NCBI RefSeq assembly: GCF_000025925.1
Contig: NC_014033.1
Coordinates: forward strand, 3,180,001 to 3,212,000
DNA from: Xylanibacter ruminicola 23
GTDB taxonomy: Bacteria; Bacteroidota; Bacteroidia; Bacteroidales; Bacteroidaceae
Reading direction: 5' to 3'
DNA: 32,000 nucleotides
Part shown: positions 17 through 27,733 of the stretch, piece by piece
Position numbering within the stretch: the stretch's first letter is position 1
Layout of the letters: the number at the start of each line of letters is the position of its first letter
Notes under the pieces: model-generated
What the model was told of the DNA's origin: nothing
The model's database searches: none
The model's input: the letters and a program-made list of their open reading frames with translations, nothing else
Translations under genes and position numbers: made by a program

Positions 17-1066
17 TTACTGCTTTTGTCCGATAGCCTTGTATTGGCGTATCATGGCATCGGCCAGTATAGCGTTACTCTCGTTGGCACCGTACAGGGT
101 GTCGTAAATCATCTTCACATCATCGCGACCGCCGCCATGCTTCAAGGCGTAAACCACGCACAGGTTCTGCAGACCAACCGACTCAGACAGGATATCAAGG
201 TCGGTAACAGCCAACTGCGACAGGGCCAGCTGATAGGCTGTGTCGCTCAAATCGTCGACCATAGCTTGTACATCGCCTAACGATTCCATGCCAAAATGCT
301 CCAGAACGCGCAGGAAAGGCATCAGCGAGGCGGGGAACAGCTCGGCCTGGTTAACAGCAGCAATACGCTGGTTAAGACGCTCGAATGGGTGCAATTCAAG
401 ATAGCTGCGGAACGAGTCGGTAGAGAGTGTTACCTCGCTTAGGTTGCCTGATTTTACCAGCGTTTGTATCTGTCGGCGGTATTCGGTCATAGTGGTGCGC
501 AGACGGCTGAACTCATCGTCGGCCAACTCTAACATACCGGCCAGGCGACTGAACTGTCGGCGATACTGTGGGGGCAGTTTAACGGCACCCTTGTAGCCGA
601 TGTCGTGCTCGATGGCCGACCACGTGTGCTGCAGTGCTGTACGTATCTGTATCTCGAAGGGAATGCTACCCTCGTGCAGCTGGCAGATGTAGTGCAGCGA
701 GTTATAGCCAAAGCTGTTGAAATCGTGCAGCTTGCGCTTATCAACAGAGTTGCTCCAGTCGATATCGAACAACTGACTGACAATGGCTGCTACCTTATCC
801 ACATCATCGGTATAGAAGGTAACAATGCGCAGGCCAATCAGGTCGGTAATGTCGCTTAGCGAGTGATATTTCTCGCCTTTGCGCTCTAACTTACCAGCCA
901 ACGACTCAACACCCTTGATGCGGTGCTCGATGCTGTTAAGTTCGATGCCCTGCTGCTGCATGGTGGTCTGTAACAGCTCGAAAACCTTGTTGTCAAGCTG
1001 TATCAGTTGTGGCCGCAGTTCGATGAACTCCTGCAGCAACGCTTCGCAATGTGGCGACAGGCGCAT
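17..1066 (-). CDS. RelA/SpoT-domain protein (small alarmone synthetase-like) with a ~150-aa uncharacterised C-terminal domain
   Basis: 349-aa ORF. Synthetase-domain motifs occur in canonical order: HRIKGVESLAGKLERKG, DLIGLRIVT, GYNSLHYI, FEIQIRTALQHTW, EHDIGYK. There is no hydrolase (HD) domain. Its ATG overlaps the upstream stop (TAATG at 1064-1068). Confidence 0.85.
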   Translation of the reverse strand: MRLSPHCEALLQEFIELRPQLIQLDNKVFELLQTTMQQQGIELNSIEHRIKGVESLAGKLERKGEKYHSLSDITDLIGLRIVTFYTDDVDKVAAIVSQLFDIDWSNSVDKRKLHDFNSFGYNSLHYICQLHEGSIPFEIQIRTALQHTWSAIEHDIGYKGAVKLPPQYRRQFSRLAGMLELADDEFSRLRTTMTEYRRQIQTLVKSGNLSEVTLSTDSFRSYLELHPFERLNQRIAAVNQAELFPASLMPFLRVLEHFGMESLGDVQAMVDDLSDTAYQLALSQLAVTDLDILSESVGLQNLCVVYALKHGGGRDDVKMIYDTLYGANESNAILADAMIRQYKAIGQKQ

Positions 1067-1368
1067 TAGATAAACTCAAAAAGATTAATAAAACCAGTCA
1101 TGGCAAACACCTGGCGCAGATCTTCGTTCATGTTGCGCAGATAAACATGGCTGCCTTTGGGCTTTGCGGCCTTGAGCAGACCAAGGAACAGGCGCAGACC
1201 ACTTGATGAGATATACTCGAGTGCTGTGCAATCAAGAATGATATCGTGACCAGAGCATTCGTAAAGTGGAGCCATGCTCTTTTCAACCTCTGCTGATGCA
1301 GCCGTATCCAAACGACCTTCGAAGTACATCACGAAATTCTTCTCTTCTTCTTTGAATGTTGTTTTCAT
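1066..1368 (-). CDS. STAS-domain anti-sigma-factor antagonist (SpoIIAA/RsbV-like)
   Basis: 100 aa, typical STAS length. The phosphorylatable-serine context is conserved (LEYISSSGLRLF). It sits 6 nt downstream of the kinase-like gene. Confidence 0.85.
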   Translation of the reverse strand: MKTTFKEEEKNFVMYFEGRLDTAASAEVEKSMAPLYECSGHDIILDCTALEYISSSGLRLFLGLLKAAKPKGSHVYLRNMNEDLRQVFAMTGFINLFEFI

Positions 1369-1374
1369 AACTAT

Positions 1375-1794
1375 TTATTTTTTAGTGATAATTTTGCTGA
1401 GTGTGAGTAGATTCTTATTATCTACACGCTCGTAGTTAATGGTATCCATTATTTGTCGTATCAGGTGAATGCCTAATCCGCCGATACTACGCTGTTCGGC
1501 TGAAAGCGTAGTATCGACCTCGGCTTTGACCGTTGGGTCGAAGGGGGTACCGCTGTCGCTGATGACAAACTTAAGATGCTCATCGTTTATCTGGGCATCG
1601 ATATCCACATCGCCCTTACCATTGGGATAGGCATAGTTCATGACGTTAACCACAGCCTCTTCGATGGCCAGGTTAATCTTCATCGTTGTGCTCATGTCGA
1701 GGCCTGCAGTCTCGCACACCTCATCTACAAATGCATTGAGCTGGGGCACTTCCTGCACATCGTTAGGCAGTGTAAGATGATTTTGGTAACGCAC
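1375..1794 (-). CDS. Anti-sigma regulatory factor / serine protein kinase (RsbW/SpoIIAB-like, HATPase_c fold)
   Basis: 139 aa. N-box-like EEAVVNVMNYAY, G1-like DSGTPFD and G2-like GGLGIHLIR are present. Size and order match partner-switching kinases. Confidence 0.8.
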   Translation of the reverse strand: MRYQNHLTLPNDVQEVPQLNAFVDEVCETAGLDMSTTMKINLAIEEAVVNVMNYAYPNGKGDVDIDAQINDEHLKFVISDSGTPFDPTVKAEVDTTLSAEQRSIGGLGIHLIRQIMDTINYERVDNKNLLTLSKIITKK

Positions 1795-1866
1795 GTCGAA
1801 TTGTTATTTAGTGTATTGAAGTACGACTTGTATCATCTGATAGATGATGGCATGAGAAGAAACTGC

Positions 1867-3759
1867 CTACTCAAGATAGGTATATCCGTAGAGTCCTGAG
1901 CGGTAGTTAGAGAGGAATTCCTTACCCTCGTCCAAACTGATCTTGCCCTGCTTTACGCTCTTGGCAACCCAAACCTCCAGCTGGCGAACCAGCTTCTTGG
2001 GGTTGTACTGCACGTATTCCAGAACCTCTTCGACGGTCTCACCATCGATAATCTGGTCGATGTGGTAGGTGCCGTCTTTCTCAGAGATATGAACGGCATT
2101 GGTATCGCCGAACAGGTTGTGCATATCGCCTAAGATTTCCTGATAAGCACCTACCAGGAACACGCCTAAGTAGTAAGGCTCGTTCTTTTTGAGTGCATGA
2201 ACAGGCAGCGAGTGCGAGTTGTTGCGATTGGTGGTAAAGTTGGCTATCTTACCATCACTGTCGCAGGTAATGTCCTGAATGGTAGCATTACGTGTGGGAC
2301 GCTCGTCCAAACGCTGAATAGGCATGATGGGGAATACCTGGTCGATGGCCCATGAGTCGCTCAGACTCTGGAACAATGAGAAGTTACAGAAGTACTTGTC
2401 GGCCAGGAGCTTGTCAATCTTCATGAGCTCCTCGGGAATATGCTTCAGACTCTTGGCCAGGGCATGAATCTCGTGGCATACACTCCAGTACATAGCCTCT
2501 ACTTCAGCACGGGTTCTCAGGTCGACGATACCATGACTGAACAGGTCGAGAACTTCTTCGCGAATCTGCTCGGCATCGTGCCAGTCCTCCAGGACATTAC
2601 GTGGACTCAGGTTGTCCCAAATCTCATACAGGTCCTTAACCAGCTGGTGGCTGTTGGCATCTGGCTCGAACTCCTCGGGCATCTCGGGCAGTGAGGCTGT
2701 CTCAAGTACATCGATAACCAGCACTGAGTGGTGGGCAGCCAATGAGCGACCGCTCTCGGTAATGATATTGGGGTGAGGCAGTCCGTTCTTGTTGGCTGCT
2801 TCTACAAAGGTGTAGATACAGTCGTTAACGTACTCCTGAATTGAATAGTTTACTGAGCTCTCGCTGGATGGAGAACGGGTTCCGTCGTAGTCAACGCCCA
2901 GACCGCCACCACAGTCAACAAAATCTACGTTGTAGCCCATCTTGTGCAGCTGGATGTAGAACTGCGAAGCCTCGCGAAGGGCTGTCTGGATACGGCGGAT
3001 CTTGGTAATCTGGCTACCAATGTGGAAGTGGATGAGGCGCAGACAGTCGTTCAGTCCTTTCTTCTCCAGGAAGTCGAGTGCTTCAAGCAATTCGGCACTG
3101 GTAAGTCCGAACTTGCTGGCGTCGCCACCGCTCTCTTCCCATTTGCCTGAGCCGCTTGAGGCCAGCTTGATGCGGATACCGATGTTTGGACGGATATTCA
3201 TCTTCTTAGCCTCGCGAGCGATAATCTCAAGCTCGTTCATCTTCTCAACTACGATGAAGATCTGTTTGCCCATCTTCTGTGCCAGCAGGGCCAGTTCGAT
3301 ATAACTCTGATCCTTATATCCGTTACAGATGATGATTGAGTCGCTTTGGCATTGCATGGCGATAACGGCATGCAACTCGGGTTTTGAACCAGCCTCAAGG
3401 CCAAGGTTGAACTTGCGGCCGTGCGAGATAATCTCCTCGACCACAGGCTGCATCTGGTTTACCTTGATGGGATAAACCACGTAGTTCTCGCCTTTGTAGT
3501 CGTACTCCTCGGATGCCTTTTTAAAGCAGCTCCACGTTTTCTCGATACGATTATCAAGAATATCGGGGAAACGCAACAGTACTGGTGGCGTAACATCACG
3601 CAGTGCCAGTTCGTCCATTACCTCGCGCAAGTCAATCTGTGTGCTGTTCTTGCTGGGGGTAACGTAAACATCGCCCTTGTCGTTGATACCAAAATAAGAA
3701 GTGCCCCAACCGTTGATGTTGTACAACTCCTTTGAATCCTCAATCGTCCATTTCTTCAT
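1867..3759 (-). CDS. speA: Biosynthetic arginine decarboxylase
   Basis: 630 aa. SpeA-type N-terminus (WTIEDSKELYNINGWG) and PLP-fold motifs (YPIKVNQ, GLEAGSKPEL, HFHIGSQ, DCGGGLGVDY). C-terminal GDMHNLFGDTN. Confidence 0.95.
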   Translation of the reverse strand: MKKWTIEDSKELYNINGWGTSYFGINDKGDVYVTPSKNSTQIDLREVMDELALRDVTPPVLLRFPDILDNRIEKTWSCFKKASEEYDYKGENYVVYPIKVNQMQPVVEEIISHGRKFNLGLEAGSKPELHAVIAMQCQSDSIIICNGYKDQSYIELALLAQKMGKQIFIVVEKMNELEIIAREAKKMNIRPNIGIRIKLASSGSGKWEESGGDASKFGLTSAELLEALDFLEKKGLNDCLRLIHFHIGSQITKIRRIQTALREASQFYIQLHKMGYNVDFVDCGGGLGVDYDGTRSPSSESSVNYSIQEYVNDCIYTFVEAANKNGLPHPNIITESGRSLAAHHSVLVIDVLETASLPEMPEEFEPDANSHQLVKDLYEIWDNLSPRNVLEDWHDAEQIREEVLDLFSHGIVDLRTRAEVEAMYWSVCHEIHALAKSLKHIPEELMKIDKLLADKYFCNFSLFQSLSDSWAIDQVFPIMPIQRLDERPTRNATIQDITCDSDGKIANFTTNRNNSHSLPVHALKKNEPYYLGVFLVGAYQEILGDMHNLFGDTNAVHISEKDGTYHIDQIIDGETVEEVLEYVQYNPKKLVRQLEVWVAKSVKQGKISLDEGKEFLSNYRSGLYGYTYLE

Positions 3760-3781
3760 TTTCTAAACGGATATGAATATG

Positions 3782-4309
3782 TTATAAATCTAATAGTTCT
3801 TTTATCTTGTCGACGCTAATCTTGATTTTCTCGTAGTTGTCCATCAGACTCACGTCGAGTGTATACTTAGCCTTTGTGTAGAAAGGTTCGCGCTTCTCCA
3901 GCTGCTGGCGGATAAAGGTTATCAGCTCCTCGGGGCTTTTGCCTTTAATCAGCGGGCGCTCAACCTTGCCCATCAGCAGGTGGTTGTATAGTACCTCGGG
4001 ATCGGCCTTCAGGTAAACCGTCAGTCCCTGCTGGTTCAGATAGTCCATATTGTCAAAGAAGCAGGGCGTGCCGCCGCCACAGCTGATGATGACATTCTCA
4101 AACTCTGCCACCTCGTGCAGCATGCTGTGCTCCATTTTTCGGAACCCCTCTTCGCCACGTTCGGCAAATATCTGTGCCACTGTTTTGCGCATGCGGCTCT
4201 CGATATACCAGTCAAGGTCGTAGAAGGTGGCACCTAACTCCTTTGAGAGAGCCTTACCGATGGTGGTTTTGCCGGCTCCCATATAGCCTATCAGAATGAT
4301 GCGCTTCAT
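3782..4309 (-). CDS. aroK: Shikimate kinase
   Basis: 175 aa. Walker A GYMGAGKTT, DLD shikimate-binding motif and CGGGTP motif. Its ATG overlaps the topA stop (ATGA at 4306-4309). Confidence 0.9.
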   Translation of the reverse strand: MKRIILIGYMGAGKTTIGKALSKELGATFYDLDWYIESRMRKTVAQIFAERGEEGFRKMEHSMLHEVAEFENVIISCGGGTPCFFDNMDYLNQQGLTVYLKADPEVLYNHLLMGKVERPLIKGKSPEELITFIRQQLEKREPFYTKAKYTLDVSLMDNYEKIKISVDKIKELLDL

Positions 4310-6708
4310 GCCTCTGCCTCTGCTTTTGTGGTTGTCTTCTTAGTGGCGGCCTTTCTGCCAGCACCTTTTCTTGCACCTCGCTTGGCGGTTTTCTTATCAC
4401 CCTCCTCGCTCTTCATCTGCTCGATAATCTTCATGCACTCGTCGTAGGTAAGATCCTTGGCGTTCTCGTGCAGGTTCTTTGGCAGGCGATAGTTCTGTCC
4501 GTCGTAGGCCAGGTAAGGACCGTAGATACCGTTCATAATCTCCAGCTTGGGATCCTCAAGGAAGAACTTCATGTGCTTGGCTGCTTCCTGTCGGCGCTTC
4601 TCCTGGATGAGCACAATGGCCTCGTCGAGTGTGATAGCCATTGGATCGGCATCCTTTGGCAGCGATGCAAACATGCGGTCGTGCTTAACGTAAGGACCGA
4701 ATCTACCAGCACCAACGCTTACGGGCAGACCTTCGAACTCACCCAAGTCGCGTGGCAGCTTAAACAGCTCCATAGCCTCTTCCAAGGTGATTGTTTCCAT
4801 ACTCAGCTCCTTAGGTAACTGGGCAAACTGAGGCTTGTCCTTATCCTCTGACGAGCCAATCTGTACTACAGGTCCGAAGCGGCCAATCTTTACAAATACT
4901 GGGCGACCAGTCTTGGGGTCGTTACCCAACTCGCGCTCACCAGCCTTGAACTTCTGACGGCTGTTAAGAGTTTCCTCAACCGTTGGCTCAAAGTCCTTGT
5001 AGAAGTGTTTCATCATATCCTTCCACTTCTCGTCGCCCTCGGCAATCTTATCAAAGTCCTGCTCTACCTTGGCAGTAAAGTTATAGTCCATGATGCCAGG
5101 GAAGTTTTCCATCAGGAAGTCGTTTACTACAGTACCAATGTCGGTTGGCAACAGCTTGCCGCGCTCTGAGCCAGCCATCTCCTTACGGGTTTTCTGGGTA
5201 ATCTGCTTACCCTTCAGCTGGTAGATAGAGTAGAAACGCTCTTCGCCTTTCTTATCACCCTTCATCACATACTCGCGCTGCTGGATGGTAGAGATGGTTG
5301 GGGCGTATGTTGATGGACGACCGATACCTAACTCTTCCATCTTGTGTACCAGACTGGCCTCGGTGTAGCGCTGAGGACCGGCACTGAAACGCTCGGTGGT
5401 AAGGATTTCGCGACGTGTGAGCTCCTGTCCTTTCTTGATAACAGGCAGTGAGTGGCTGTAATCCTCGCCGTTCTCGTCATCGTCGGATGATTCACGATAT
5501 ACTTTCAGGAAACCATCAAACTTGATAACCTCGCCCTGAGCTGTGAATACCTCCTCGATACCATCGCTCTTGATGGTTATAGTGGTCTTCTCAATCTCCG
5601 CATCGGCCATCTGACTGGCGATGGTACGCTTCCAAATCAAATCGTAGAGTTTACGCTCCTGGGCACTGCCTTCAATCTCAGTCATATTCATGTATGATGG
5701 ACGGATGGCCTCGTGTGCTTCCTGAGCGCCCTTTGAGTTGGTGTGATACTTGCGAAGTTTGCTATAGTTCTCGCCATAGAGGTTTACAATCTCGCTCTTG
5801 CTAGCGTTCAAACAAAGTTGCGACAGGTTTACAGAGTCGGTACGCATGTAAGTAATACGTCCGCTCTCGTACAGGTGCTGGGCCACCATCATTGTCTGAC
5901 TAACGGTGAAGCCGAGCTTGCGGGCTGCTTCCTGTTGCAGGGTAGATGTGGTGAATGGGGGCGCAGGTGTACGCTTTGATGGCTTTTTGGTGATGGCATC
6001 GGCATAGAAAGTGGCTGTTTTGCACTTCTCCAGGAATTCCATCACTTCATCCTCGGTGCTGAAACGCTTGCTCAGCTGGGCTTTAACCTCCGAGGCTGAG
6101 CCATCGGGGTTAACAACAGCAAACACACCGCTGACACTATAATAAGGCTCGCTCTTAAAATTCTGTATCTCGCGCTCGCGCTCTACAATCAGTCGCACTG
6201 CAACACTCTGTACACGACCAGCCGACAGGGCGGGCTTAACCTTACGCCAAAGTACTGGTGAGAGTTTGAAACCTACCAGACGGTCGAGCACGCGGCGGGC
6301 CTGCTGGGCATTAACCAAATCCATGTTGATATGGCGTGGATGCTCGATGGCATCGAGAATAGCCGATTCGGTAATCTCGTGGAATACAATACGGTTAGTC
6401 TTCTGTTCGTCCAATCCTAAAACCTCGCAAAGGTGCCATGAGATGGCTTCTCCTTCGCGGTCCTCATCGGATGCCAGCCATACAGTCTCTGCCTTGCCGG
6501 CTTTTGATCGTAAATCCTCTACCAGACTAACCTTCTCTTCGGGAATCTCGTATTCTGGTTCCAGCGTCTTTTCGTCGATGCTGATTTCTCTTTTCTTTAA
6601 GTCGCGGATGTGTCCGTAGCTCGACATGACCTTGTAATCCTTTCCCAGGAATTTCTCAATAGTCTTTGCCTTTGCGGGCGACTCCACTATCACTAAGTTC
6701 TTTTGCAT
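4306..6708 (-). CDS. topA: DNA topoisomerase I
   Basis: Toprim N-terminus LVIVESPAKAKTIEKFLG, DEDREGE, and active-site Tyr context ITYMRTDS. C-terminal GRFGPxV repeats and a Lys-rich tail. The start is placed at 6708 (MQKNLVIV) because a TAnnTTTG box at 6739-6746 lies inside the longer 6741 ORF. Confidence 0.95.
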   Translation of the reverse strand: MQKNLVIVESPAKAKTIEKFLGKDYKVMSSYGHIRDLKKREISIDEKTLEPEYEIPEEKVSLVEDLRSKAGKAETVWLASDEDREGEAISWHLCEVLGLDEQKTNRIVFHEITESAILDAIEHPRHINMDLVNAQQARRVLDRLVGFKLSPVLWRKVKPALSAGRVQSVAVRLIVEREREIQNFKSEPYYSVSGVFAVVNPDGSASEVKAQLSKRFSTEDEVMEFLEKCKTATFYADAITKKPSKRTPAPPFTTSTLQQEAARKLGFTVSQTMMVAQHLYESGRITYMRTDSVNLSQLCLNASKSEIVNLYGENYSKLRKYHTNSKGAQEAHEAIRPSYMNMTEIEGSAQERKLYDLIWKRTIASQMADAEIEKTTITIKSDGIEEVFTAQGEVIKFDGFLKVYRESSDDDENGEDYSHSLPVIKKGQELTRREILTTERFSAGPQRYTEASLVHKMEELGIGRPSTYAPTISTIQQREYVMKGDKKGEERFYSIYQLKGKQITQKTRKEMAGSERGKLLPTDIGTVVNDFLMENFPGIMDYNFTAKVEQDFDKIAEGDEKWKDMMKHFYKDFEPTVEETLNSRQKFKAGERELGNDPKTGRPVFVKIGRFGPVVQIGSSEDKDKPQFAQLPKELSMETITLEEAMELFKLPRDLGEFEGLPVSVGAGRFGPYVKHDRMFASLPKDADPMAITLDEAIVLIQEKRRQEAAKHMKFFLEDPKLEIMNGIYGPYLAYDGQNYRLPKNLHENAKDLTYDECMKIIEQMKSEEGDKKTAKRGARKGAGRKAATKKTTTKAEAEA

Positions 6709-6738
6709 ATTCTGTCGCGTTATATTTCTTTCGGGCTG

Positions 6739-19786: not shown

Positions 19787-20581
19787 TTATCTTACTACTT
19801 CTGTAAATTCTGGCTTGCCGCCCTTTTCTACGGTTACGTAGATGGTAGCGGTGGCCTCTTTGCCGTTCATGCCGCGACTTTTTACCTTAAACTCATAGTC
19901 GGTGCCATCGGGCGTTTCGCGCTTACCTACTGTCTGAGGTGTGCCGAGAGGGAACTGATAGCTCGAGCAGGCGGCGTCAAACAGCGCCTTCTCGGCATCG
20001 GTTACGGGCTTCTGTGCTGTATAGGCTGGCAGGGCTTTTACTGCGCCCTTCTTGTAGCCGTTCTCTGTCAGGAAACGGTTCAGCTCTTTGGCTGCTTTAG
20101 CCACGCGGGCTGTACGTACGCCATAGCCCTGGGCAATCTTGGCCTTGGGCAGTGCCTTCTTCAGGTCGGCCGATGATGTGTTCAGTCCGCCGCTGCCAAA
20201 GGTGCAGAAGGGCACAATCGTCTTACCTGGAAAATCCTGCCCGTTCAGCAGTGTTACAATCGGGTTGGCATAGGTGCCATACCAGATGGGGTATCCTAAA
20301 AAGATGACATCGTACTTGCTCAAGTCGCTCTTGAGGGGCTTGATGGCGGGCCACTCACCGTTTTGGCGCTCTTTGTTGCCACGCTGTACGGTAGCCTGAA
20401 AATCGCCTGTATAAGGCTCAACAGCCTCTACGGCTTCGATGTCAGCACCCAGTTGTTTCTGGATTTCCTCGGCTACGGTCTTGGTTGTACCATTCTCTGA
20501 GTAGTAAAGCACCAGCTTCTGCTGTGCATAACTCGTTGCAATGCCTGTAATCATTGCCAATGATAAAAATAGTTTTCGCAT
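19787..20581 (-). CDS. Exported flavodoxin-like protein with a C-terminal extra domain
   Basis: The start is placed at MRKLFLSLAMITGIATSYAQ (signal peptide). Flavodoxin-like core LVLYYSENGTTKTVAEEI...VIFLGYPIWYGT...IVPFCTFGSGG, then a ~85-aa C-terminal domain of unknown type. It sits 9 nt upstream of the helicase gene. Confidence 0.7.
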   Translation of the reverse strand: MRKLFLSLAMITGIATSYAQQKLVLYYSENGTTKTVAEEIQKQLGADIEAVEAVEPYTGDFQATVQRGNKERQNGEWPAIKPLKSDLSKYDVIFLGYPIWYGTYANPIVTLLNGQDFPGKTIVPFCTFGSGGLNTSSADLKKALPKAKIAQGYGVRTARVAKAAKELNRFLTENGYKKGAVKALPAYTAQKPVTDAEKALFDAACSSYQFPLGTPQTVGKRETPDGTDYEFKVKSRGMNGKEATATIYVTVEKGGKPEFTEVVR

Positions 20582-20613
20582 AATAATTTTGTATAATTGT
20601 CTATAATCGTTTG

Positions 20614-20621
20614 CAAAGATA
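20614..20621 (-). promoter_or_regulatory. -7 promoter box (TATCTTTG) for the flavodoxin-like/helicase unit
   Basis: Reverse complement of caaagata, 33 nt upstream of the 20581 start. Confidence 0.55.
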
Positions 20622-20633
20622 CAAAATAATTTG

Positions 20634-20641
20634 TAATTTTG
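20634..20641 (+). promoter_or_regulatory. -7 promoter box (TAATTTTG) for the LOG-family gene
   Basis: Exact TAnnTTTG motif. The ATG at 20650 begins only 9 nt after the box. Confidence 0.45.
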
Positions 20642-20649
20642 CAAGCATT

Positions 20650-21442: not shown

Positions 21443-21982
21443 CTAATCGCCGATGGGTTCTTTACTGCCGCCGCCGGTGTTGCCACCCTGATTGCCGCTA
21501 CCCGAACCTCCACCGTTCGAGGGCTGATTGCCGCTTGGATTGGTGGGCTCATCATCTTCATCTTTGTAGTCGGTGAAGTTCTTAGGCAACTCGGTTACGT
21601 TACCAGCCTTGGTAAGCTCCTGTCGGGTAAACTCGCCAGTGGCACGGGCGCGCAGGTACACGCTGTCGATGTGCTTGGTGGTCGAGAAATCCTCGCTCTT
21701 CAGGGCACCGCCCTTGGCAGTCTCGATACCTGCCGAGAAGATAGCCAGGTTAGGCAGCTTAACGGCCTTGCCCTCCAGCACCAACTCGCGGATACATTCT
21801 ACCATGTCGGTCAGCATACCCTTGATGGCTCCCTTAGAGTAGGGCGTGTTGTGGCTCGACATGTGCTTGGCCAGCTCGTCCAGATCGATGGTTTTGCCGA
21901 TGGTAACGGCGCGTGCAAACCAACGTCCGTAAACGGCACTCTGCTTGTTCTTGTTCTGATACTTACGATAAAATACACTCAT
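21443..21982 (-). CDS. HU-family (Bacteroidales HU_HIG-like) DNA-binding protein with a Gly/Asn/Ser-rich tail
   Basis: 179 aa. N-terminus MSVFYRKYQNKNKQSAVYGRWFARAV... and core GAIKGMLTDMVECIRELVLEGKAVKLPNLAIFSAGIE are typical of the long HU-like proteins of Bacteroides/Prevotella. Low-complexity C-terminus SNGGGSGSGNQGGNTGGGS. Confidence 0.8.
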   Translation of the reverse strand: MSVFYRKYQNKNKQSAVYGRWFARAVTIGKTIDLDELAKHMSSHNTPYSKGAIKGMLTDMVECIRELVLEGKAVKLPNLAIFSAGIETAKGGALKSEDFSTTKHIDSVYLRARATGEFTRQELTKAGNVTELPKNFTDYKDEDDEPTNPSGNQPSNGGGSGSGNQGGNTGGGSKEPIGD

Positions 21983-22017
21983 AATGGTTAAAATTTAAAT
22001 GGTTAATACTAATGTTG

Positions 22018-22036
22018 TTTTGACGATGCAAAGGTA
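22018..22036 (-). promoter_or_regulatory. Promoter of the HU-like gene (TACCTTTG box plus conserved start region), paralogous to 24144-24162
   Basis: The minus strand reads TACCTTTGCATCGTCAAAA, a 19-nt sequence identical to 24144-24162 on the plus strand. The box is 47 nt upstream of the HU ATG. Confidence 0.6.
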
Positions 22037-22106
22037 CAACATTTTTGGTGCGAAACCAAATCCACAGGCCCTTGCACTGCAAAAATTTGTTAACGCTACG
22101 TTTACG

Positions 22107-22218
22107 CCTCGCAAACATAATATTTGCCCCTCGCAAACGCACCGTTTACAAATCGCAACAGCCCCGCATACTTTGTGACTGTGATTCTGTGACAATAAGC
22201 CCCTCTCGCAAATCGCAG
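22107..22218. repeat. Phased TCGCAA repeats (CCTCGCAAAC x2, plus AATCGCAAC, CTCGCAAATCGCA)
   Basis: TCGCA(A) starts at 22109, 22131 and 22153 (exact 22-bp phasing), and again at 22206 and 22213. Confidence 0.8.
22174..22194 (+). promoter_or_regulatory. Bipartite site TGTGAC-N8-TGTGACA (copy 1)
   Basis: tgtgactgtgattctgtgaca. It is near-identical, spacer included, to copy 3 at 27172-27193. Confidence 0.6.
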
Positions 22219-22238
22219 CCACAACCCATCCGTATAGT

Positions 22239-22275
22239 TTAAAAATAATATAATAAATTATTATATTATTTTTAA
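22239..22275. repeat. Perfect 37-bp all-A/T palindrome (18-bp arms around a central A)
   Basis: ttaaaaataatataataaattattatattatttttaa. I checked base by base that positions 22239-22256 pair with 22275-22258. Confidence 0.95.
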
Positions 22276-22308
22276 GTACCCATCGGCACCATTATCGTAC
22301 CACCTTAA

Positions 22309-22330
22309 TGTCACAAAGTCAAAAGTCACA
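22309..22330 (-). promoter_or_regulatory. Bipartite site TGTGAC-N9-TGTGACA (copy 2, inverted orientation)
   Basis: The plus strand tgtcacaaagtcaaaagtcaca has reverse complement tgtgacttttgactttgtgaca. Confidence 0.55.
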
Positions 22331-22399
22331 GAGTACAGAATGAATCATTAAAAAGCCATAAATTTCGGTCAGAATGATTGCAGAATAAGATAGAATGTT

Positions 22400-22407
22400 T
22401 AAATTTG
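22400..22407 (+). promoter_or_regulatory. -7 promoter box (TAAATTTG) for the 326-aa/188-aa gene pair
   Basis: Exact TAnnTTTG motif 29 nt upstream of the ATG at 22436. Confidence 0.5.
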
Positions 22408-22435
22408 CAGTCTTAAAAAATTAGAATGAGCAACT

Positions 22436-23416
22436 ATGGCACAGATAGAAACAGCCAGTGTGGAACTGGCGTGGGTTGAGAAAAATTTCTTTAAAGGGGC
22501 AGGTTTGGATAAGGCCAGCCGTTTGAAGGGTGATGAGCGCAGGGCTTATAGGCTTGCGCAAGTTGAGCGATTACTGGCAACGCCATGCGGATATACTACA
22601 GCAGCAATATGGTTGTCGGATAGGTTCTGGACGGCCGAAGAAGGCAGGAAGATATATGAAAAAGACCCTAATCCGCTGTTGCTGCTGAAGGAACAGCAAA
22701 CACTAGAGGATGACGAAATGGCGCGCTTGCGACTGATACTGGAGGTGGCCGGCTTGTGCCACGACCTGAGTTTGCACTATACGTTCAACCTGGATGACGC
22801 TTTCGGTGTTGAGAACAATTTCTGGGCGTCGAACAAGCAGTTAGTAGAGTGGCTTACAACAACCGAATATGAAAACATAGCAATGCACACGGCATATATT
22901 ATGAAGAAGTATGCTACTGGTGTGTATGCATGTGGTCGCTACCAACCTGCGCAAGATGCGCTGGCCGAACTTTTTTCGGTAGAGTATGGCAAACTTATAC
23001 GCGAACCTGAAAGAACAGAAATGCCCTCGCGTGCTTATGTTAAGATTGTTCTTGACGAGTTGATACGTATAGATGAGCATTGGAAGCAGGGGCGTAAGAA
23101 GAGGTTGAGACCAGATTTGATACTTCTTCACGACGAAATATATGGCGTGGTGCCCAACCAGTTTGACAATGATGTACTGAAGGCCGCAAAGGCGCTCTAC
23201 AATTATATGGACAACGATGTGTACGGGCGAATGGTAGGTAACAATCCTTTTGGGCCTGAGGCGCTGAAGCTCTTTGCTAAAAAGGTTCGTGAGGTTCGTG
23301 CTGAGTATTTGGCTGAAGGTTGGGTTGCCGACGATTCGTTGGAGTTTGCCTATTTGATGGCTCATGCCGAGAGTTGTGCTAATGGTTGGTGGCGAGAGGA
23401 GGACGAAGCCTTATGA
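22436..23416 (+). CDS. Hypothetical protein, 326 aa, no recognisable domain
   Basis: Long clean ORF with its own promoter box and balanced composition. I could find no Walker, nuclease, HTH or transmembrane signatures. Its stop overlaps the next start (ATGA at 23413-23416). Confidence 0.7.
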   Translation: MAQIETASVELAWVEKNFFKGAGLDKASRLKGDERRAYRLAQVERLLATPCGYTTAAIWLSDRFWTAEEGRKIYEKDPNPLLLLKEQQTLEDDEMARLRLILEVAGLCHDLSLHYTFNLDDAFGVENNFWASNKQLVEWLTTTEYENIAMHTAYIMKKYATGVYACGRYQPAQDALAELFSVEYGKLIREPERTEMPSRAYVKIVLDELIRIDEHWKQGRKKRLRPDLILLHDEIYGVVPNQFDNDVLKAAKALYNYMDNDVYGRMVGNNPFGPEALKLFAKKVREVRAEYLAEGWVADDSLEFAYLMAHAESCANGWWREEDEAL

Positions 23417-23979
23417 TGAGTAGTAATCGTAGCGACTATAAGTCGGCTTCGGAATGGCTATCTACACTTATACACGATGAGGCGTGGCTCACTCAACAAC
23501 AGCAGCTACAATCCTCAACTGCTGCCGATGCAAACGTACATCGCGACGCAGCCATCAGGCGTATTGGTATAGGTGAGACTTATGAGTTCTGGGAAATCCA
23601 CGGCCATCAGGTGGAGAAGGCGGTTAGCGAGGTTTGGGAGATAGCAGAGTTGTCGCTCCCAAAACTAAAGATTCAAACCATCGGCATGCTTTCGATGGCA
23701 TGGCTTGAGCAGCATACAGATGCACAATTAGACACAAAGCAGCAACAAGAAGTGGTTGAGAAACTGGCGCCCATATTTTTTGGACAGACAGAAGCAGCAA
23801 GAGAGTTTCTGGTGAGCATCAAAGGCATGAAGCCCACGCAGATTACCAACATGGTAAACCAGTTGGTATGCGATAAAAAAATATCGGAACTATCCATGCA
23901 TCGCGACTTGTGGCAGGTGTTGCACGACTATAAAATCTATACCAAATCGGAATCTAACTGGAATATGCAGGTAAAATAA
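23413..23979 (+). CDS. Hypothetical protein, 188 aa, Gln-rich with a helical C-terminal module
   Basis: The start is placed at the ATG of the ATGA overlap (MMSSNRSDYK...). The C-terminus PTQITNMVNQLVCDKKISELSMHRDLWQVLHDYKIYTKSESNWNMQV looks like a small HTH-like module, but the family is not identified. Confidence 0.65.
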   Translation: MMSSNRSDYKSASEWLSTLIHDEAWLTQQQQLQSSTAADANVHRDAAIRRIGIGETYEFWEIHGHQVEKAVSEVWEIAELSLPKLKIQTIGMLSMAWLEQHTDAQLDTKQQQEVVEKLAPIFFGQTEAAREFLVSIKGMKPTQITNMVNQLVCDKKISELSMHRDLWQVLHDYKIYTKSESNWNMQVK

Positions 23980-24005: not shown

Positions 24006-24037
24006 AAGGAATCGGCGCTTGTCGGTTCCTTTTTTTG
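24006..24037 (+). terminator. Rho-independent terminator of the two-gene unit
   Basis: 9-bp stem aaggaatcg / cggttcctt (one G-U pair), 8-nt loop, followed by TTTTTT. Confidence 0.75.
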
Positions 24038-24044
24038 TATCTAT

Positions 24045-24094
24045 ACTTGTACAAAAACTTGTGTACGACTTGTATAAACTTGTAATTACTTGTA
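24045..24094 (+). repeat. Five direct ACTTGT(A/G) iterons at helical phasing
   Basis: Copies start at 24045, 24057, 24068, 24078 and 24088, giving spacings of 12, 11, 10 and 10 bp. The array is 50-100 bp upstream of the 24144 promoter box. Confidence 0.9.
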
Positions 24095-24143: not shown

Positions 24144-24162
24144 TACCTTTGCATCGTCAAAA
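24144..24162 (+). promoter_or_regulatory. Promoter (TACCTTTG box plus conserved start region) of the small-ORF/145-aa/primase-like/DUF5675-like unit
   Basis: TACCTTTGCATCGTCAAAA is identical to the HU promoter region. Similarity continues downstream (AACA..AGTATT.AC). Confidence 0.6.
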
Positions 24163-24220
24163 AACAAAAGTATTCACTAAAGGTCGCTTTAAGGAGGCGA
24201 CGTTAAATAAAAAAATAATT

Positions 24221-24361
24221 ATGAGTCGTACACGTAATCACATCGTAATCGCACGAGGTATTATGGCTGAGAATTCACGTCGACAGATGTCGTTGATAAA
24301 CAGGTGCCAGATGCCTTACTCATCGAAGAAGGATTATCGCTTCGTGAACCACAAGTTCTAA
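24221..24361 (+). CDS. Possible 46-aa basic peptide (hypothetical)
   Basis: An ATG preceded by an A-rich leader (aaataaaaaaataatt) gives MSRTRNHIVIARGIMAENSRRQMSLINRCQMPYSSKKDYRFVNHKF. The track's 70-aa version starts at a TTG inside the promoter box. Coding status is uncertain. Confidence 0.35.
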   Translation: MSRTRNHIVIARGIMAENSRRQMSLINRCQMPYSSKKDYRFVNHKF

Positions 24362-24495: not shown

Positions 24496-24933
24496 ATGCG
24501 AAAAGAATTTCTTACAAAGCACTTGTTGCAGCAGAACGTCCAGATGGACGGCAACGTTAACTTTATGGTGAATGGCGACATTAATATCCAGCCCTGCCCT
24601 TGGGAGCAGGATGTGGATCTGACCGATGGGCGCCCCGTTCACTACCTGGCTAACCTTGAGGTGATGGCCGATGGTCAGACTCGAGTAAAGGCCAAGCGCA
24701 CCGGCAGTCGCGGCCCGTTGTATCAAACACTGTTTGAGACTGCTCACGGCACTGTAAAGATAGTGCCCCAGCGCAAGCAGCGCCACCCTGAGCGCGAACA
24801 GCTGATAGTAGAGTTTAAGTTTCCTCGCCGCTATGGACTGGCGCTAACCAAGGCGCTCTATGAGGAGGAAGCAGATCAGGTATTGTCGTACTTTAAAACA
24901 CGAAAGGAGGAATGTTTATGGAATCAGCATTAA
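24496..24933 (+). CDS. Hypothetical protein, 145 aa
   Basis: ATG-initiated ORF co-oriented with the primase-like gene. Its 3' end overlaps that gene by 22 nt. No motif recognised. Confidence 0.55.
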   Translation: MRKEFLTKHLLQQNVQMDGNVNFMVNGDINIQPCPWEQDVDLTDGRPVHYLANLEVMADGQTRVKAKRTGSRGPLYQTLFETAHGTVKIVPQRKQRHPEREQLIVEFKFPRRYGLALTKALYEEEADQVLSYFKTRKEECLWNQH

Positions 24934-27176
24934 TCAGCACCATTAAATTTACATGTATTGGCAAGGGGCACGGCGCTCCTTGCACCCCCGCCAGCCGAGA
25001 GGAGTGGGAACAGCTACGCCGAGAGCCCTGGTTGGCACAGATGTGCGAGCGCATAGCCAAGGGCGACGATGAACTGAAGCACCGATTGCCTGTGTGGACA
25101 CCCCATTGCGCGGAGTTTGCCAACAATCACCGATCGATAGCCGATGCCATCAAGCCGCTTAACCGACTGATGCTGGACTTTGATGAGAAGGGACACACCG
25201 ACGACATTCTGTCGAAATTGAAAATTGAAAATGGAAAATTGAAAAATGGCTGCGCTGAGCCTGACTTGCACGGAATGGTGGTGCTGCTGGTTGAAGAATC
25301 GGTGCGCCATGGTACGCATGTGCTGGTAGAGTTGCCCGATGGGATGACTGCCGAACAGGCGCAGGAACTGATGCAAGAGGCTACGGGATTTGTACCCGAT
25401 GCTGCCGTAAAGGATGTGTCGCGTTGTATCTACATGGTGCCCGATGACCATACCCGCTACGTAAGCGAGCGGCTGTTTAATATAGGCACGGATGACACGG
25501 CTTCTAAAGAAAACACGGCTGACTGTGCTGTTGAAAAAAGCAGCGTCTCTCTAAAAGAGAGCTGTGTTAATCCGTGCCAAAAAGAATTTAAAGGCATACC
25601 CTACAGCTCTATCATAGCCGAGTGGTGGCACCGCAACGGGGGCGAGCCTGCCGAGGGCGAACGTAACGTAAAACTACACAAGTTGGCAGTAAATCTGCGC
25701 GCCATCTGCGATAATAAGAAAGAGGTGCTGATGCAGGTGATGCCCCGATTCGGACTGACCGATGCCGAACTTAAATCGGTAGTCGATTCGGCTTGCAAGG
25801 AAGAACCCAAAGGCGTTTCGAAGACGCTGTCTTCTATCATTGACAATTTATCATTAACCATTAACCATTCTGATGAGGAGGAGTTAGATGGTGCGGAAAA
25901 TGGTCAATCTTCAATGTTCAATGTTCAATGGAACAAACTGCCCATCGGACTGAAAGAGTCGTTGGTTGGTGTGCCCGTATCCATGCATATGCCTGTGCTG
26001 TGCGGCGTGCTGCCCATTGCGGCGGCCTATGCCGACCAGGTAACGGTGGAATATTGCGATGGCAACACCCAGCGCTTAGGTCTGATGTCGATAATCCGTG
26101 GCGAGCAGGCCAGCAACAAATCGGTAGTAAAGAATGCTGTTGACATCTGGAAACGACAGCTTGACGAGGAAGATGCCCTGGCCCGCAAGCGCGAAGAGGA
26201 GTGGAAGGAGCGCAAAAAGGGGCGCAAAGCCAGCGAGAAGGCACCCGAAGATCCGCATGTATTGATTCGCGTAGTGCCCGTAACCGTTAGCTGCTCAACG
26301 TTGCTTAAGCGTTTCAAGAACGCTCAGAACCACACCCTGTACAGCTTTGGTGAGGAACTCGACACGCTGCGTAAAACCAACGGAGCCGGTTCGTGGTCGA
26401 GCAAATACGATATTTATCGCTTGGGTTTCGACTATGGCGAATGGGGACAGGATTACAATAGCGATGCAGCCGAGAGTGGTGTGGTAAACGTGGCATATAA
26501 CTGGACTATGCTGGGAACAAACGGCGCCCTGCGCAAGTGCTTTAAGGCCGATAACATAGAGAACGGACTCTCGAGCCGTGTGTTGGTGGCCGAAATGCCT
26601 GATGCCAGCTTTGCCAAGATGCCTAAGTTCCGCAAGCGATCGGACGAGGATGTGGCCAGGATACAAGAGGCCGTGAGCCGTTTGCGTGGCTACTCAGGAT
26701 TGGTTGACACACCCCGCCTGCGCAAAGCCATCGAGGGCTGGGTAGAGCAGAAACGCATAGAGGCAGCCAAGGATATCGACCACGTAAAGGATACCTATCG
26801 TAAGCGTGCTGCCGTTATCGGCTTCCGCTGTGGCGTGGTGTTCCACCTGCTGAGCGGTTGCAACAAGGAGAGTAAGGCCTGTACCGATTTTGCGCTGATG
26901 ATGGCCGAATACTGCCTGCAGCAGCAGATAAAGGCCTTTGGCGAGGCACTCGAAAGTCAGTTCCTGGATGCCCGCGACGAGTGTGTGCGTTATGGCTCTA
27001 ACCACTCTATCTTCGATCAGCTGGCACCTACGTTTACCATGGACGATTTGCGTGCGCTGAAGCGAGGATTCTGCGGCGAGGCCGGGCTGCGAAAAATCAT
27101 TTCGCGCTGGTATCGCGACCAGTGGATTGAGAAAACCGACCGCACGCACTGGAAGAAACTAAACACTACTGTGTGA
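24912..27176 (+). CDS. Primase-helicase-like protein: BT4734/VirE_N-type N-terminal domain plus DUF3987-like C-terminal domain
   Basis: 754 aa. The N-terminal pattern KHRLPVWTPHCAEF...NRLMLDFDEKGH matches the LP...F...(S)G(L)..(L)DfD signature I associate with VirE_N/BT4734-like domains. The large C-terminal region resembles DUF3987 proteins of Bacteroidales. An SD-like aaaggagg lies at 24904-24910. I could find no canonical Walker A. Confidence 0.6.
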   Translation: MFMESALISTIKFTCIGKGHGAPCTPASREEWEQLRREPWLAQMCERIAKGDDELKHRLPVWTPHCAEFANNHRSIADAIKPLNRLMLDFDEKGHTDDILSKLKIENGKLKNGCAEPDLHGMVVLLVEESVRHGTHVLVELPDGMTAEQAQELMQEATGFVPDAAVKDVSRCIYMVPDDHTRYVSERLFNIGTDDTASKENTADCAVEKSSVSLKESCVNPCQKEFKGIPYSSIIAEWWHRNGGEPAEGERNVKLHKLAVNLRAICDNKKEVLMQVMPRFGLTDAELKSVVDSACKEEPKGVSKTLSSIIDNLSLTINHSDEEELDGAENGQSSMFNVQWNKLPIGLKESLVGVPVSMHMPVLCGVLPIAAAYADQVTVEYCDGNTQRLGLMSIIRGEQASNKSVVKNAVDIWKRQLDEEDALARKREEEWKERKKGRKASEKAPEDPHVLIRVVPVTVSCSTLLKRFKNAQNHTLYSFGEELDTLRKTNGAGSWSSKYDIYRLGFDYGEWGQDYNSDAAESGVVNVAYNWTMLGTNGALRKCFKADNIENGLSSRVLVAEMPDASFAKMPKFRKRSDEDVARIQEAVSRLRGYSGLVDTPRLRKAIEGWVEQKRIEAAKDIDHVKDTYRKRAAVIGFRCGVVFHLLSGCNKESKACTDFALMMAEYCLQQQIKAFGEALESQFLDARDECVRYGSNHSIFDQLAPTFTMDDLRALKRGFCGEAGLRKIISRWYRDQWIEKTDRTHWKKLNTTV

Positions 27177-27241: not shown

Positions 27242-27733
27242 ATGGAGATTATATTAACACGCATAGCTAAGCGCCAGCAGTACACGATAGGTAGGCTGGC
27301 CATTGTAGAACGTACCGACGATGAGTATCTGGCTGGTGAGCGCGAGGTGTATTTTTGCGATACCCTCGAACCGCCTGTCATCCAGACTAAAACTACCGTA
27401 TCGCTGGCTTCGGTGCTGCGTTCGCCCGTAAAACTTAAATCTATCAAGCCCGTGGCCATCCCCGAAGGCCGCTACGCAGTAGTTATTACCTACTCCCCAA
27501 AGTTCAACAAGTGGTTACCGCTGCTGTTGGGTGGTCAGGACTTTAACCGCCTGTGGCAGGGCATACGCATACACTTTGGCAACACCGTTGCCGATACGCA
27601 GGGTTGCATACTGCTGGGGCGCAACCAGCGCGTGGGCAGGTTGTTTGAGAGTCGTAAGTGGGTGTACGAGCTAAAGCAGAAAATCATCGAAGCCAAGGCC
27701 CGAAAAGAAGCAGTGTGGATTACCATCAGGTAG
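27242..27733 (+). CDS. DUF5675-like protein with an H-x-GN...DT-x-GC motif (possible YkuD-like / cell-wall-active fold)
   Basis: 163 aa. IPEGRYAVVITYSPKFNKWLPLL...GIRIHFGNTVADTQGCILLG matches my recollection of the DUF5675 core (RY.v....SPKF....P.L..V.g..gI.IH.GN...DT.GCIl.G). No signal peptide. Confidence 0.5.
   Translation: MEIILTRIAKRQQYTIGRLAIVERTDDEYLAGEREVYFCDTLEPPVIQTKTTVSLASVLRSPVKLKSIKPVAIPEGRYAVVITYSPKFNKWLPLLLGGQDFNRLWQGIRIHFGNTVADTQGCILLGRNQRVGRLFESRKWVYELKQKIIEAKARKEAVWITIR

Follow-up and report, generated by a model that had tools for sequence, protein, structure and literature searches.

Introduction

What does a tightly coupled pair of genes without a recognisable domain do within the cassette that carries it? 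This question is raised by the open reading frames (ORFs) ORF1 and ORF2 of Xylanibacter ruminicola 23, which lie on a stretch of 32,000 nt (NC_014033.1, positions 3,180,001–3,212,000, forward strand). We call this whole stretch the window, and all coordinates are window-based unless another locus is named; loci carry L numbers and members of the ORF1 family P numbers. A first-pass annotation, made from the letters alone, had described the two genes as a self-contained, translationally coupled unit with no recognisable domains, and had proposed an initiator/regulator pair, or a toxin-antitoxin (TA) or defence pair carried by a cassette. Our analysis supports this interpretation in part. ORF1–ORF2 is a real, conserved, translationally coupled operon of rumen Prevotella. 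The comparisons give good support to ORF1 as a free-standing remote homolog of the helical domain with which type I restriction R subunits (HsdR) end, and ORF2 ends in an exchangeable module whose type changes together with a neighbouring array of short repeats. We tentatively favour a two-protein complex in which ORF2 would sit on the array and hold ORF1 through its N-domain. The complex would regulate the primase-helicase operon next to it, or a nearby origin, or else recruit a partner there.

Results and Discussion

A scan of one genome per species returned 27 loci, all from rumen or gut Prevotellaceae/Bacteroidales and with Xylanibacter ruminicola Ga6B6 as the nearest named relative; together with the window and the loci L001–L003 they form a set of 31. 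In all 31, an ORF1 homolog is directly followed by a gene with the ORF2 N-terminal domain (ORF2N), and in nearly all of them the o145/o754 operon comes next on the 3' side. The two genes overlap by ATGA in 28 loci and by 1 nt in the remaining three, which bears out the coupling and is consistent with a stoichiometric complex. P0379, an ORF1 relative with 28% identity, also overlaps a next gene whose N-terminus is ORF2N-like (22 bits). The start of ORF2 differs from the program-made ORF list, which gives TTG 23386; because 43 homologs share the conserved N-terminus 'MMSSNR', we set it at ATG 23413. The features of the unit and its surroundings are collected in Table 1.

Table 1. Positions of the ORF1–ORF2 unit, its control signals and the neighbouring cassette features in the window
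Feature	Coordinates	Strand	Remarks
TAAATTTG, Bacteroidetes-type −7 box, putative promoter of the ORF1–ORF2 operon	22400..22407	+	29 nt 5' of the ATG
ORF1	22436..23416	+	326 aa, ATG start, acidic (isoelectric point (pI) 5.1), all-helical
ATGA stop/start overlap of ORF1 and ORF2 (translational coupling)	23413..23416	+	read from the sequence; conserved
ORF2	23413..23979	+	188 aa
ORF2 N-domain (aa 1–105), helical, presumed ORF1-binding	23413..23727	+	always accompanies ORF1; AlphaFold2 pLDDT ~90
ORF2 C-terminal module type A (aa 112–188, pI 8.1), exchangeable, putative DNA-binding	23746..23976	+	swapped in homologs
Terminator-like hairpin and T-run closing the ORF1–ORF2 operon	24006..24037	+	11-bp stem 24006–24031, then T-run
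Five direct ACTTGT(A/G) repeats, presumed type-A module sites	24045..24094	+	spacing 12, 11, 10, 10 bp
TACCTTTG, conserved −7-type box, presumed promoter of the downstream operon	24144..24151	+	~50 bp 3' of the array
Small conserved ORF ('MSRTRNHIVIARG...')	24221..24361	+	46 aa; between array/promoter box and o145
HU-HIG DNA-binding protein, divergent, upstream slot boundary	21443..21982	-	Pfam
o145	24496..24933	+	145 aa; ORF list; downstream operon
o754	24912..27176	+	754 aa; weak DUF3987 match, primase-like N-terminal motifs
DUF5675 protein, last cassette gene	27242..27733	+	family scan

Both genes are under purifying selection: the pairwise dN/dS values against relatives are 0.10–0.20 for ORF1, 0.07–0.22 for the ORF2 N-domain and 0.15–0.25 for the ORF2 C-terminal module. 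Only one ORF1 copy among the 31 loci is disrupted, that of L028 (1483–2432), a metagenome-assembled genome, where the homolog is frameshifted into ORFs of 266 aa and 54 aa, possibly by an assembly error. The control signals that the first-pass annotation had placed around the unit are present. The box TAAATTTG fits the Bacteroidetes −7 consensus TAnnTTTG and from this match would be the promoter of ORF1–ORF2; of 18 loci inspected for it, 11 have such a box 24–50 nt 5' of ORF1. The hairpin terminator is kept in the relatives that share the type-A module of the window. The A/T richness of the unit is also real, but small, with 47.5% G+C against 51–55% in neighbouring genes and 49.7% in the whole window.

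Direct family scans, all run with an E-value limit of 0.1, gave no significant match for either protein. Pfam and NCBIfam returned no row for ORF1 or ORF2, PHROGs a single weak ORF2 row (E 0.047, non-significant), and PADLOC (PADLOC-DB v2) a single non-significant row, ORF1 against PDC-S05 (E 0.033). Sequence-profile searches of the PDB with close and with diverse alignments found no credible match. In agreement with the earlier reading, neither protein contains a Walker A motif or a transmembrane segment (Kyte–Doolittle maximum over 19 residues ~1.0), and no nuclease or toxin signature and no catalytic motif was seen in either. The databases hold 617 relatives of ORF1 and 367 of ORF2; among the rows shown, every source-given name is "hypothetical protein", and most rows are nameless. 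The claim that the unit has no recognisable domains held for direct scans, but not at the profile level, where ORF1 resembles T1RH-like_C/DUF3387.

This family, PF11867 (T1RH-like_C, formerly DUF3387; gathering threshold 26.8 bits), is the C-terminal domain of the R subunits of HindI-type type I systems. The ORF1 family itself is small, with 127 representatives among 1.84 billion in an exhaustive profile search, mostly of 300–350 aa when short fragments are excluded. When 43 diverse members were scanned against Pfam, four matched PF11867 in a common, colinear region. P0372 lies above the cut-off (residues 184–267 on profile positions 202–287, E 2.3e-6, 27.7 bits), and the other three fall below it: P0412 (residues 155–223 on 184–253, E 8e-5, 22.6 bits), P0387 (residues 198–284 on 194–283, E 0.0069, 16.2 bits) and P0480 (residues 197–266 on 180–250, E 0.096, 12.5 bits).

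Additionally, a hidden Markov model (HMM) of the ORF1 family was run on eight annotated hsdR genes of T1RH-like_C type, taken from plasmids. Six of them scored 44.5, 35.4, 29.8, 24.8, 24.8 and 18.2 bits and the other two at most 5, with the matches always in the last ~300 HsdR residues (~730–1030) and extending up to profile positions 16–285 of 321. Shuffled and reversed controls stayed at or below 5.4 bits, and the unrelated ORF2 profiles scored no higher than 8 bits against the HsdR targets. Alignment of the ORF1 family with HsdR C-termini by hhalign gave a probability of 93.4% and an E-value of 2.5e-7 over 179 columns (ORF1 aa 127–316). The HsdR motif 'G..LGLS.EEIAFYDAL' aligns with 'GRKKRLRPDLILLHDEIYG' of ORF1; within it, 'EE(I/L)AFYDAL' is aligned to 'DLILLHDEIYG', for which the wider ORF1 family has 'EEI..HD.L.G', and D233, near-invariant in the ORF1 family, falls on the D of FYDAL.

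ORF1 and the HsdR domain are alike in length class (326 aa and 329 profile positions), in their all-helical character and in profile matches that are colinear across most of the domain; a central motif also appears to be common to them, '...G..LGLS.EE.AFYDAL...' in HsdR and '...G....L.P(D/E).I.LHDEIYG...' in ORF1. They differ in that ORF1 stands free, as the C-terminal domain alone, without PD-(D/E)xK nuclease, superfamily 2 (SF2) motor domain or hsdM/hsdS neighbours, and is coupled to the unrelated ORF2. The tail of HsdR is a further difference: its 'YPPD' is aligned to ORF1 'EGWVAD', and the 'YGYPPD' motif is not kept. EcoKI HsdR, a type IA subunit whose different C-terminus lacks a domain of the T1RH-like_C type, did not match. 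Stand-alone 'DUF3387' genes on plasmids were discarded as free-standing cases, as they proved to be hsdR remnants truncated by insertion sequences. A comparison of PDB sequences with an approximate T1RH-like_C consensus yielded no credible match, and the domain is apparently missing from the solved structures; such an apparent absence would fit the empty Foldseek result for ORF1, for which the matches of the AlphaFold2 model were set aside as meaningless at a predicted local distance difference test score (pLDDT) of 56.

The domain of ORF1 is a known one, and free-standing copies of it exist. In HsdR, the C-terminal region has a role in the assembly of R, the subunit with motor and nuclease, onto the DNA-bound M2S core (PMC12707154). 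In Synechococcus WH8102, a free-standing DUF3387 gene and a DUF1651 gene (SYNW1659–SYNW1658) form one operon in a variable genomic island. Knocking out this operon reduced both the replication of phage DNA and the burst size, which means that the DUF3387 gene helps incoming DNA (PMC5490813). This phenotype links the Synechococcus operon to DNA replication or to restriction alleviation. Both cases are two-gene operons with a stand-alone gene of DUF3387 type in first place, ORF1 being of this type only remotely. They differ in the second gene, which is DUF1651 there, whereas Pfam gave no family for ORF2 or its variants; the phylum is a different one, and the Synechococcus report mentions neither a repeat array nor a neighbouring primase-helicase.

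The knock-out of SYNW1659–SYNW1658, the sole experimental precedent that we found (PMC5490813), fits the main rival explanation, which we regard as unlikely, namely that ORF1 is an anti-restriction decoy. It would mimic the docking domain of HsdR and occupy the R sites on type I methyltransferase cores while methylation continues, and ORF2 would be a partner or regulator that is only incidentally fused to the DNA-binding module of the cassette. The extent of the similarity, essentially an entire T1RH-like_C domain and nothing else, speaks for such a decoy, as does the conflict-type cargo that the same genomic slot holds elsewhere (RelB/PIN, YafQ, HNH, a methylase fragment, Kinase-PolyVal, LPD28; see below). 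However, the binding of ORF1 to HsdM/HsdS is a prediction, and the HsdR 'YPPD' tail is missing. The pair is chromosomal and syntenic in close relatives rather than carried by phages or plasmids, and a search of IMG/VR found no relatives of ORF1. Moreover, a decoy gives no reason why ORF2N is strictly fused to modules that are specific to an array.

The AlphaFold2 model of ORF2 (pLDDT 87.8) consists of an N-terminal helical domain, a 41-residue helix (82–122) and a four-helix C-terminal module. The N-domain (aa 1–~105) is common to the homologs of ORF2, but the remainder is exchanged between them and falls into type A (the type of the window, 186–191 aa in total), type B (~283 aa) and no fewer than three others. 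A very abundant 131-aa protein ends in the type-A module as well. It is found in cassettes that lack ORF1, where its gene has the same position, as the last one ahead of the intergenic region that precedes the homologs of o145, o754 and DUF5675. ORF2 is Gln-rich, as stated before (9% Gln), and its end is helical, with four short helices in the model; the HTH-like (helix-turn-helix) character ascribed to it was not matched by any such family or fold. Foldseek with the ORF2 model against PDB and BFVD gave nothing with E<0.9, and Pfam found nothing in the architectural variants of ORF2, except for a UDG fragment in one chimeric sequence. A relationship of ORF2N or of the type-A or type-B modules to HsdM, HsdS or HsdR was rejected, with at most 8 bits.

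Separately from this, ORF2 aa 123–161 (23779–23895) show a weak, repeated likeness to the CW_7 peptidoglycan-binding repeats of the Cpl-7 lysozyme (PDB 5i8l). The comparison sets 'YG.EEEAKAFL.SIQGMKP.QITDKVNQLV' against 'WGNGQEAYDSLANAGYDPQAVQDKVNEIL', with ~10 bits for each repeat match. The total of 25.5 bits for the type-A module is the sum of three such matches, and we did not accept it as homology.

The repeats 3' of the operon follow the module type. In type-A loci, the hairpin terminator is followed by 3–6 copies of ACTTGT(A/G), typically spaced by 12, 11, 10 and 10 bp. In the whole 32-kb window, ACTTGTR occurs only 10 times on both strands, and half of these matches fall into the cluster at 24045–24094, so that the clustering is non-random. 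An ACTTGT array accompanies the type-A module in 17 of 17 loci (15 of 15 at first, then L051 and L052); the spacing of the window array recurs in L005 and L033 and, with one degenerate repeat, in L009 and L051. Type-B loci have another layout, with two TTCGGGAA, a hairpin and, after it, three words similar to TTCCCGAA with a spacing of 12 bp, and contain 0–1 copies of ACTTGT (19 loci: 17 at first, then L053 and L054). The four loci L051–L054, two near-identical pairs (L051 and L052 of type A, L053 and L054 of type B), were fetched after the rule had been found, and they obey it.

Further modules come with words of their own. A divergent B module (L026) keeps the type-B layout with the word GTAAGCGA, type C (L024) has CCCTATATAGG twice, and type D (L027) has (A/C)AGAGA four times. 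In the 36 loci of types A and B, the repeats thus change with the module; another five loci, whose modules are divergent or of a different kind, show different repeats or lack them. In all, module and array vary together over at least five module types. Very likely, the type-A module is tied to the ACTTGTA repeats. The pattern is that expected if the module confers specificity by binding DNA at these sites, which makes it a putative DNA-binding module and lends support to the earlier idea that ORF2 is a regulator or initiator.

Between the array and o145 lies the presumed promoter of the downstream operon. The box TACCTTTG (CACCTTTG in L025) is kept in type-A loci and in loci of types C, D and E, with the arrays ~50–100 bp upstream; after type-B arrays it was not found at the corresponding position. 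It precedes the small ORF, o145 and o754. The start of the small ORF is homologous ('ATGAGTCGTACA/ATGAGTAGAACA') in L002, L007, L053 and L054, and in L001 a 54-aa gene is called in the corresponding intergenic stretch. A conserved hairpin GTCGC...GCGAC (GTCGCTTTAAGGAGGCGAC) stands before the 46-aa ORF, and the stretch with both (24183–24361) is present in type-A and type-B loci.

The layout invites comparison with mobile elements, whose replication or regulatory proteins carry iteron- or operator-binding modules, for example in SaPI Rep/ori and P4 alpha/ori. Common to both are short direct repeats, spaced by roughly one turn of the helix, beside a primase-helicase gene, and a specificity module that changes together with the repeats between element variants. 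Here, in contrast, the presumed specificity module is part of a small protein of its own, either ORF2 or the 131-aa protein, and not of the helicase, the array lies 5' of the operon promoter, the cassette is without its own integrase, and binding and a role in replication are putative. The gene o754 probably encodes a primase-helicase: its middle part matches DUF3987 with 26.1 bits, near the threshold (cut-off 27). By motif reading, its N-terminal 'LMLDFDEKGH' and 'HGTHVLVELP' are archaeo-eukaryotic primase-like. In phage records, o754 has a single weak match with 24.8% identity.

The series that runs from HU-HIG (minus strand) through o145 and o754 to DUF5675 is found in differing chromosomal contexts, with flanks that are common only to the closest relatives, and no integrase belongs to it. 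Between HU-HIG and the module gene lies a slot of variable content. It holds ORF1–ORF2 alone in the window, and RelB/PIN, a 276-aa gene and ORF1–ORF2 in L001. In L033 we find a small two-gene pair, a C5-methylase fragment, LPD28, Kinase-PolyVal and genes for 329-aa, 245-aa and 131-aa proteins; L032 carries a YafQ-type TA, a 436-aa gene and a 131-aa gene, and L034 has HNH/NUMOD4, a 436-aa gene and a 131-aa gene. Given this variety, ORF1–ORF2N is one cargo set among several alternatives and is joined in frame to the array-specific module that the cassette in question uses. The unit thus behaves as exchangeable cargo in a larger cassette, much as the first-pass annotation had supposed.

At the junction of the 131-aa gene, the 245-aa protein of L033 (4576–5718) and the 436-aa protein of L034 (3205–4920) end with 'PSEVHNHFEKESGCQVFNGPVSGQFNKKQ', and the 131-aa protein that follows begins with 'MEEEKKKSDITNHFEAGANCQVFNGPISGCVF'. 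A gene of the same length as the 436-aa gene of L034 lies before the 131-aa gene of L032 (4075–5790). This direct repeat of ~20 aa could be a scar of recombination or cassette insertion, or a shared interaction motif.

Does the company in the slot make ORF1–ORF2 an immunity or abortive-infection pair, or a TA-type one, in a defence-island-like site? TA modules and nucleases do fill the slot in other genomes, WYL/WCX, HepT/MNT and S24 peptidase genes lie nearby in L051, and the domain of ORF1 derives from a restriction enzyme. Like a type II TA module, ORF1–ORF2 is an overlapping, self-contained two-gene operon in a place that also hosts genuine TA pairs. Yet we hold this explanation to be very unlikely. 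Proteins of 326 and 188 aa are atypical of type II TA pairs and much larger, the first gene encodes a homolog of a restriction-enzyme assembly domain, and no toxin or antitoxin domain is found by Pfam, NCBIfam or PADLOC, the one PADLOC row being the non-significant one given above. PHROGs likewise lacks a significant match, both proteins are free of Walker A, nuclease, transmembrane, catalytic and toxin motifs, and both genes are highly conserved and strictly syntenic, with the L028 frameshift as the one pseudogenised copy seen. Nothing in these scans supported the TA part of the earlier proposal.

We therefore return to the complex on the array, which would work as follows. ORF2 would be an adaptor whose conserved N-domain pairs with ORF1, a contact suggested by their constant company, and whose long helix would join this domain to the exchangeable C-terminal module. 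The module would recognise the direct repeats between the operon terminator and the primase-helicase promoter, and array-bound ORF2 could hold ORF1 at the repeats. The complex might then regulate the neighbouring primase-helicase operon, or recruit a helicase-type partner to this operon or to an adjacent origin; the target of such regulation or recruitment we infer from the position of the array.

Several observations weigh against this proposal. Concerning ORF1, the window protein itself gave no PF11867 match at E<=0.1 and stays under the Pfam threshold. A profile of close homologs only, which is too shallow, reached E 0.13 against HsdR C-termini, with the register unchanged, and the AlphaFold2 model is poor (pLDDT 56). 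No hsdM, hsdS or methylase gene is among the window genes scanned with Pfam, all of which are housekeeping or cassette genes, and two distant ORF1 relatives look solitary, without a partner gene. Concerning ORF2, no DNA-binding family or fold (HTH, ribbon-helix-helix and others) was detected for any module by Pfam, Foldseek or PDB profiles. The module physically adjoins the array, and co-inheritance alone could yield the co-variation. Finally, the type-A module (as the 131-aa protein), the array and the downstream operon exist with other cargo in cassettes without ORF1/ORF2N, so that the primase-helicase operon does not require ORF1/ORF2N.

Some of these points would also fit a cassette in which ORF2 alone is functional, as a regulator or by binding the origin, and in which ORF1 is an accessory helical protein whose likeness to HsdR is convergent or spurious. 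The module–array link is independent of ORF1, as the 131-aa proteins show, ORF1 of the window has no direct Pfam match, and Foldseek is empty for it. Such an explanation is nevertheless hardly probable, given that four independent family members match a common PF11867 region, one of them above the curated cut-off, that six of eight HsdR proteins score 18–45 bits against controls of at most 5.4, and that hhalign gives E 2.5e-7. In addition, ORF1 is under purifying selection and was never parted from ORF2N in the 31 loci. Spurious homology and a TA or defence pair are both less likely than the array-bound complex and the decoy.

The remaining observations concern the surroundings of the unit. 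The flanking repeats reported earlier are real on both sides of the operon. Upstream, the intergenic region between HU-HIG and ORF1 (21983–22435, 36% G+C), which the first-pass annotation had called origin-like, contains three 22-bp direct repeats (22092–22158) and a perfect, AT-rich 18+18-nt palindrome (22239–22275), on either side of which stand the inverted words ACTTTGTGAC/GTCACAAAGT (22170–22179, 22310–22319). Directly beyond the DUF6486/HU-HIG end, L053 carries an integrative element (891–6725) with a tyrosine integrase, a YhcG-like nuclease, HTH_17, AAA_25/DnaB_C-like and DUF6371 proteins; at the corresponding place L054 has unrelated housekeeping genes, and the downstream side is identical in both loci. 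This end of the cassette may be an integration hotspot.

Among the other genes of the window are pnp, rplM, rpsI, rpsB, tsf and genes for a DEAD-box helicase, a flavodoxin-like protein, a LOG-family protein, an S46 peptidase and a flippase. The window (19787–20644) and L005 have an intact copy of the flavodoxin-like gene; in two close relatives, Prevotella sp. P6B1 and GCA_000619985, no more than fragments were found by tblastn (L001 3530–3694; L002 4813–5175). At the edge of the window, a 349-aa RelA_SpoT-domain protein (17–1066, minus strand), apparently of the small alarmone synthetase/hydrolase type, is unrelated to the unit.

Conclusion

In summary, ORF1 and ORF2 form a conserved pair that joins a remote homolog of a restriction-enzyme assembly domain to what may be a DNA-tethering adaptor. 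A literature search found no description of ORF2, of its modules, of the module–array code or of a cassette with such a cargo slot. Proteins that consist of a free-standing HsdR C-terminal domain are almost unstudied, and the single knock-out that we found gave an unexpected pro-phage phenotype (PMC5490813). The pairing with an apparently DNA-tethered partner offers a route to how this domain docks and to what it recruits or blocks.

Were the decoy explanation true, ORF1 would imitate the domain through which the R subunit docks and so prevent type I restriction complexes from forming on the methyltransferase core, an anti-restriction principle distinct from that of Ocr and ArdA, which are DNA mimics. 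The decoy and its DNA-tethering adaptor would then ride in a hypervariable slot for conflict genes, within a chromosomal primase-helicase cassette that many rumen Prevotellaceae possess. Independently of this, the co-variation of module and repeats provides a natural set of candidate orthogonal protein–DNA recognition pairs. The cassette itself, with HU-HIG, the variable slot, the primase-helicase and DUF5675, behaves like a hotspot, so far undescribed, at which abundant rumen bacteria carry conflict-type cargo.

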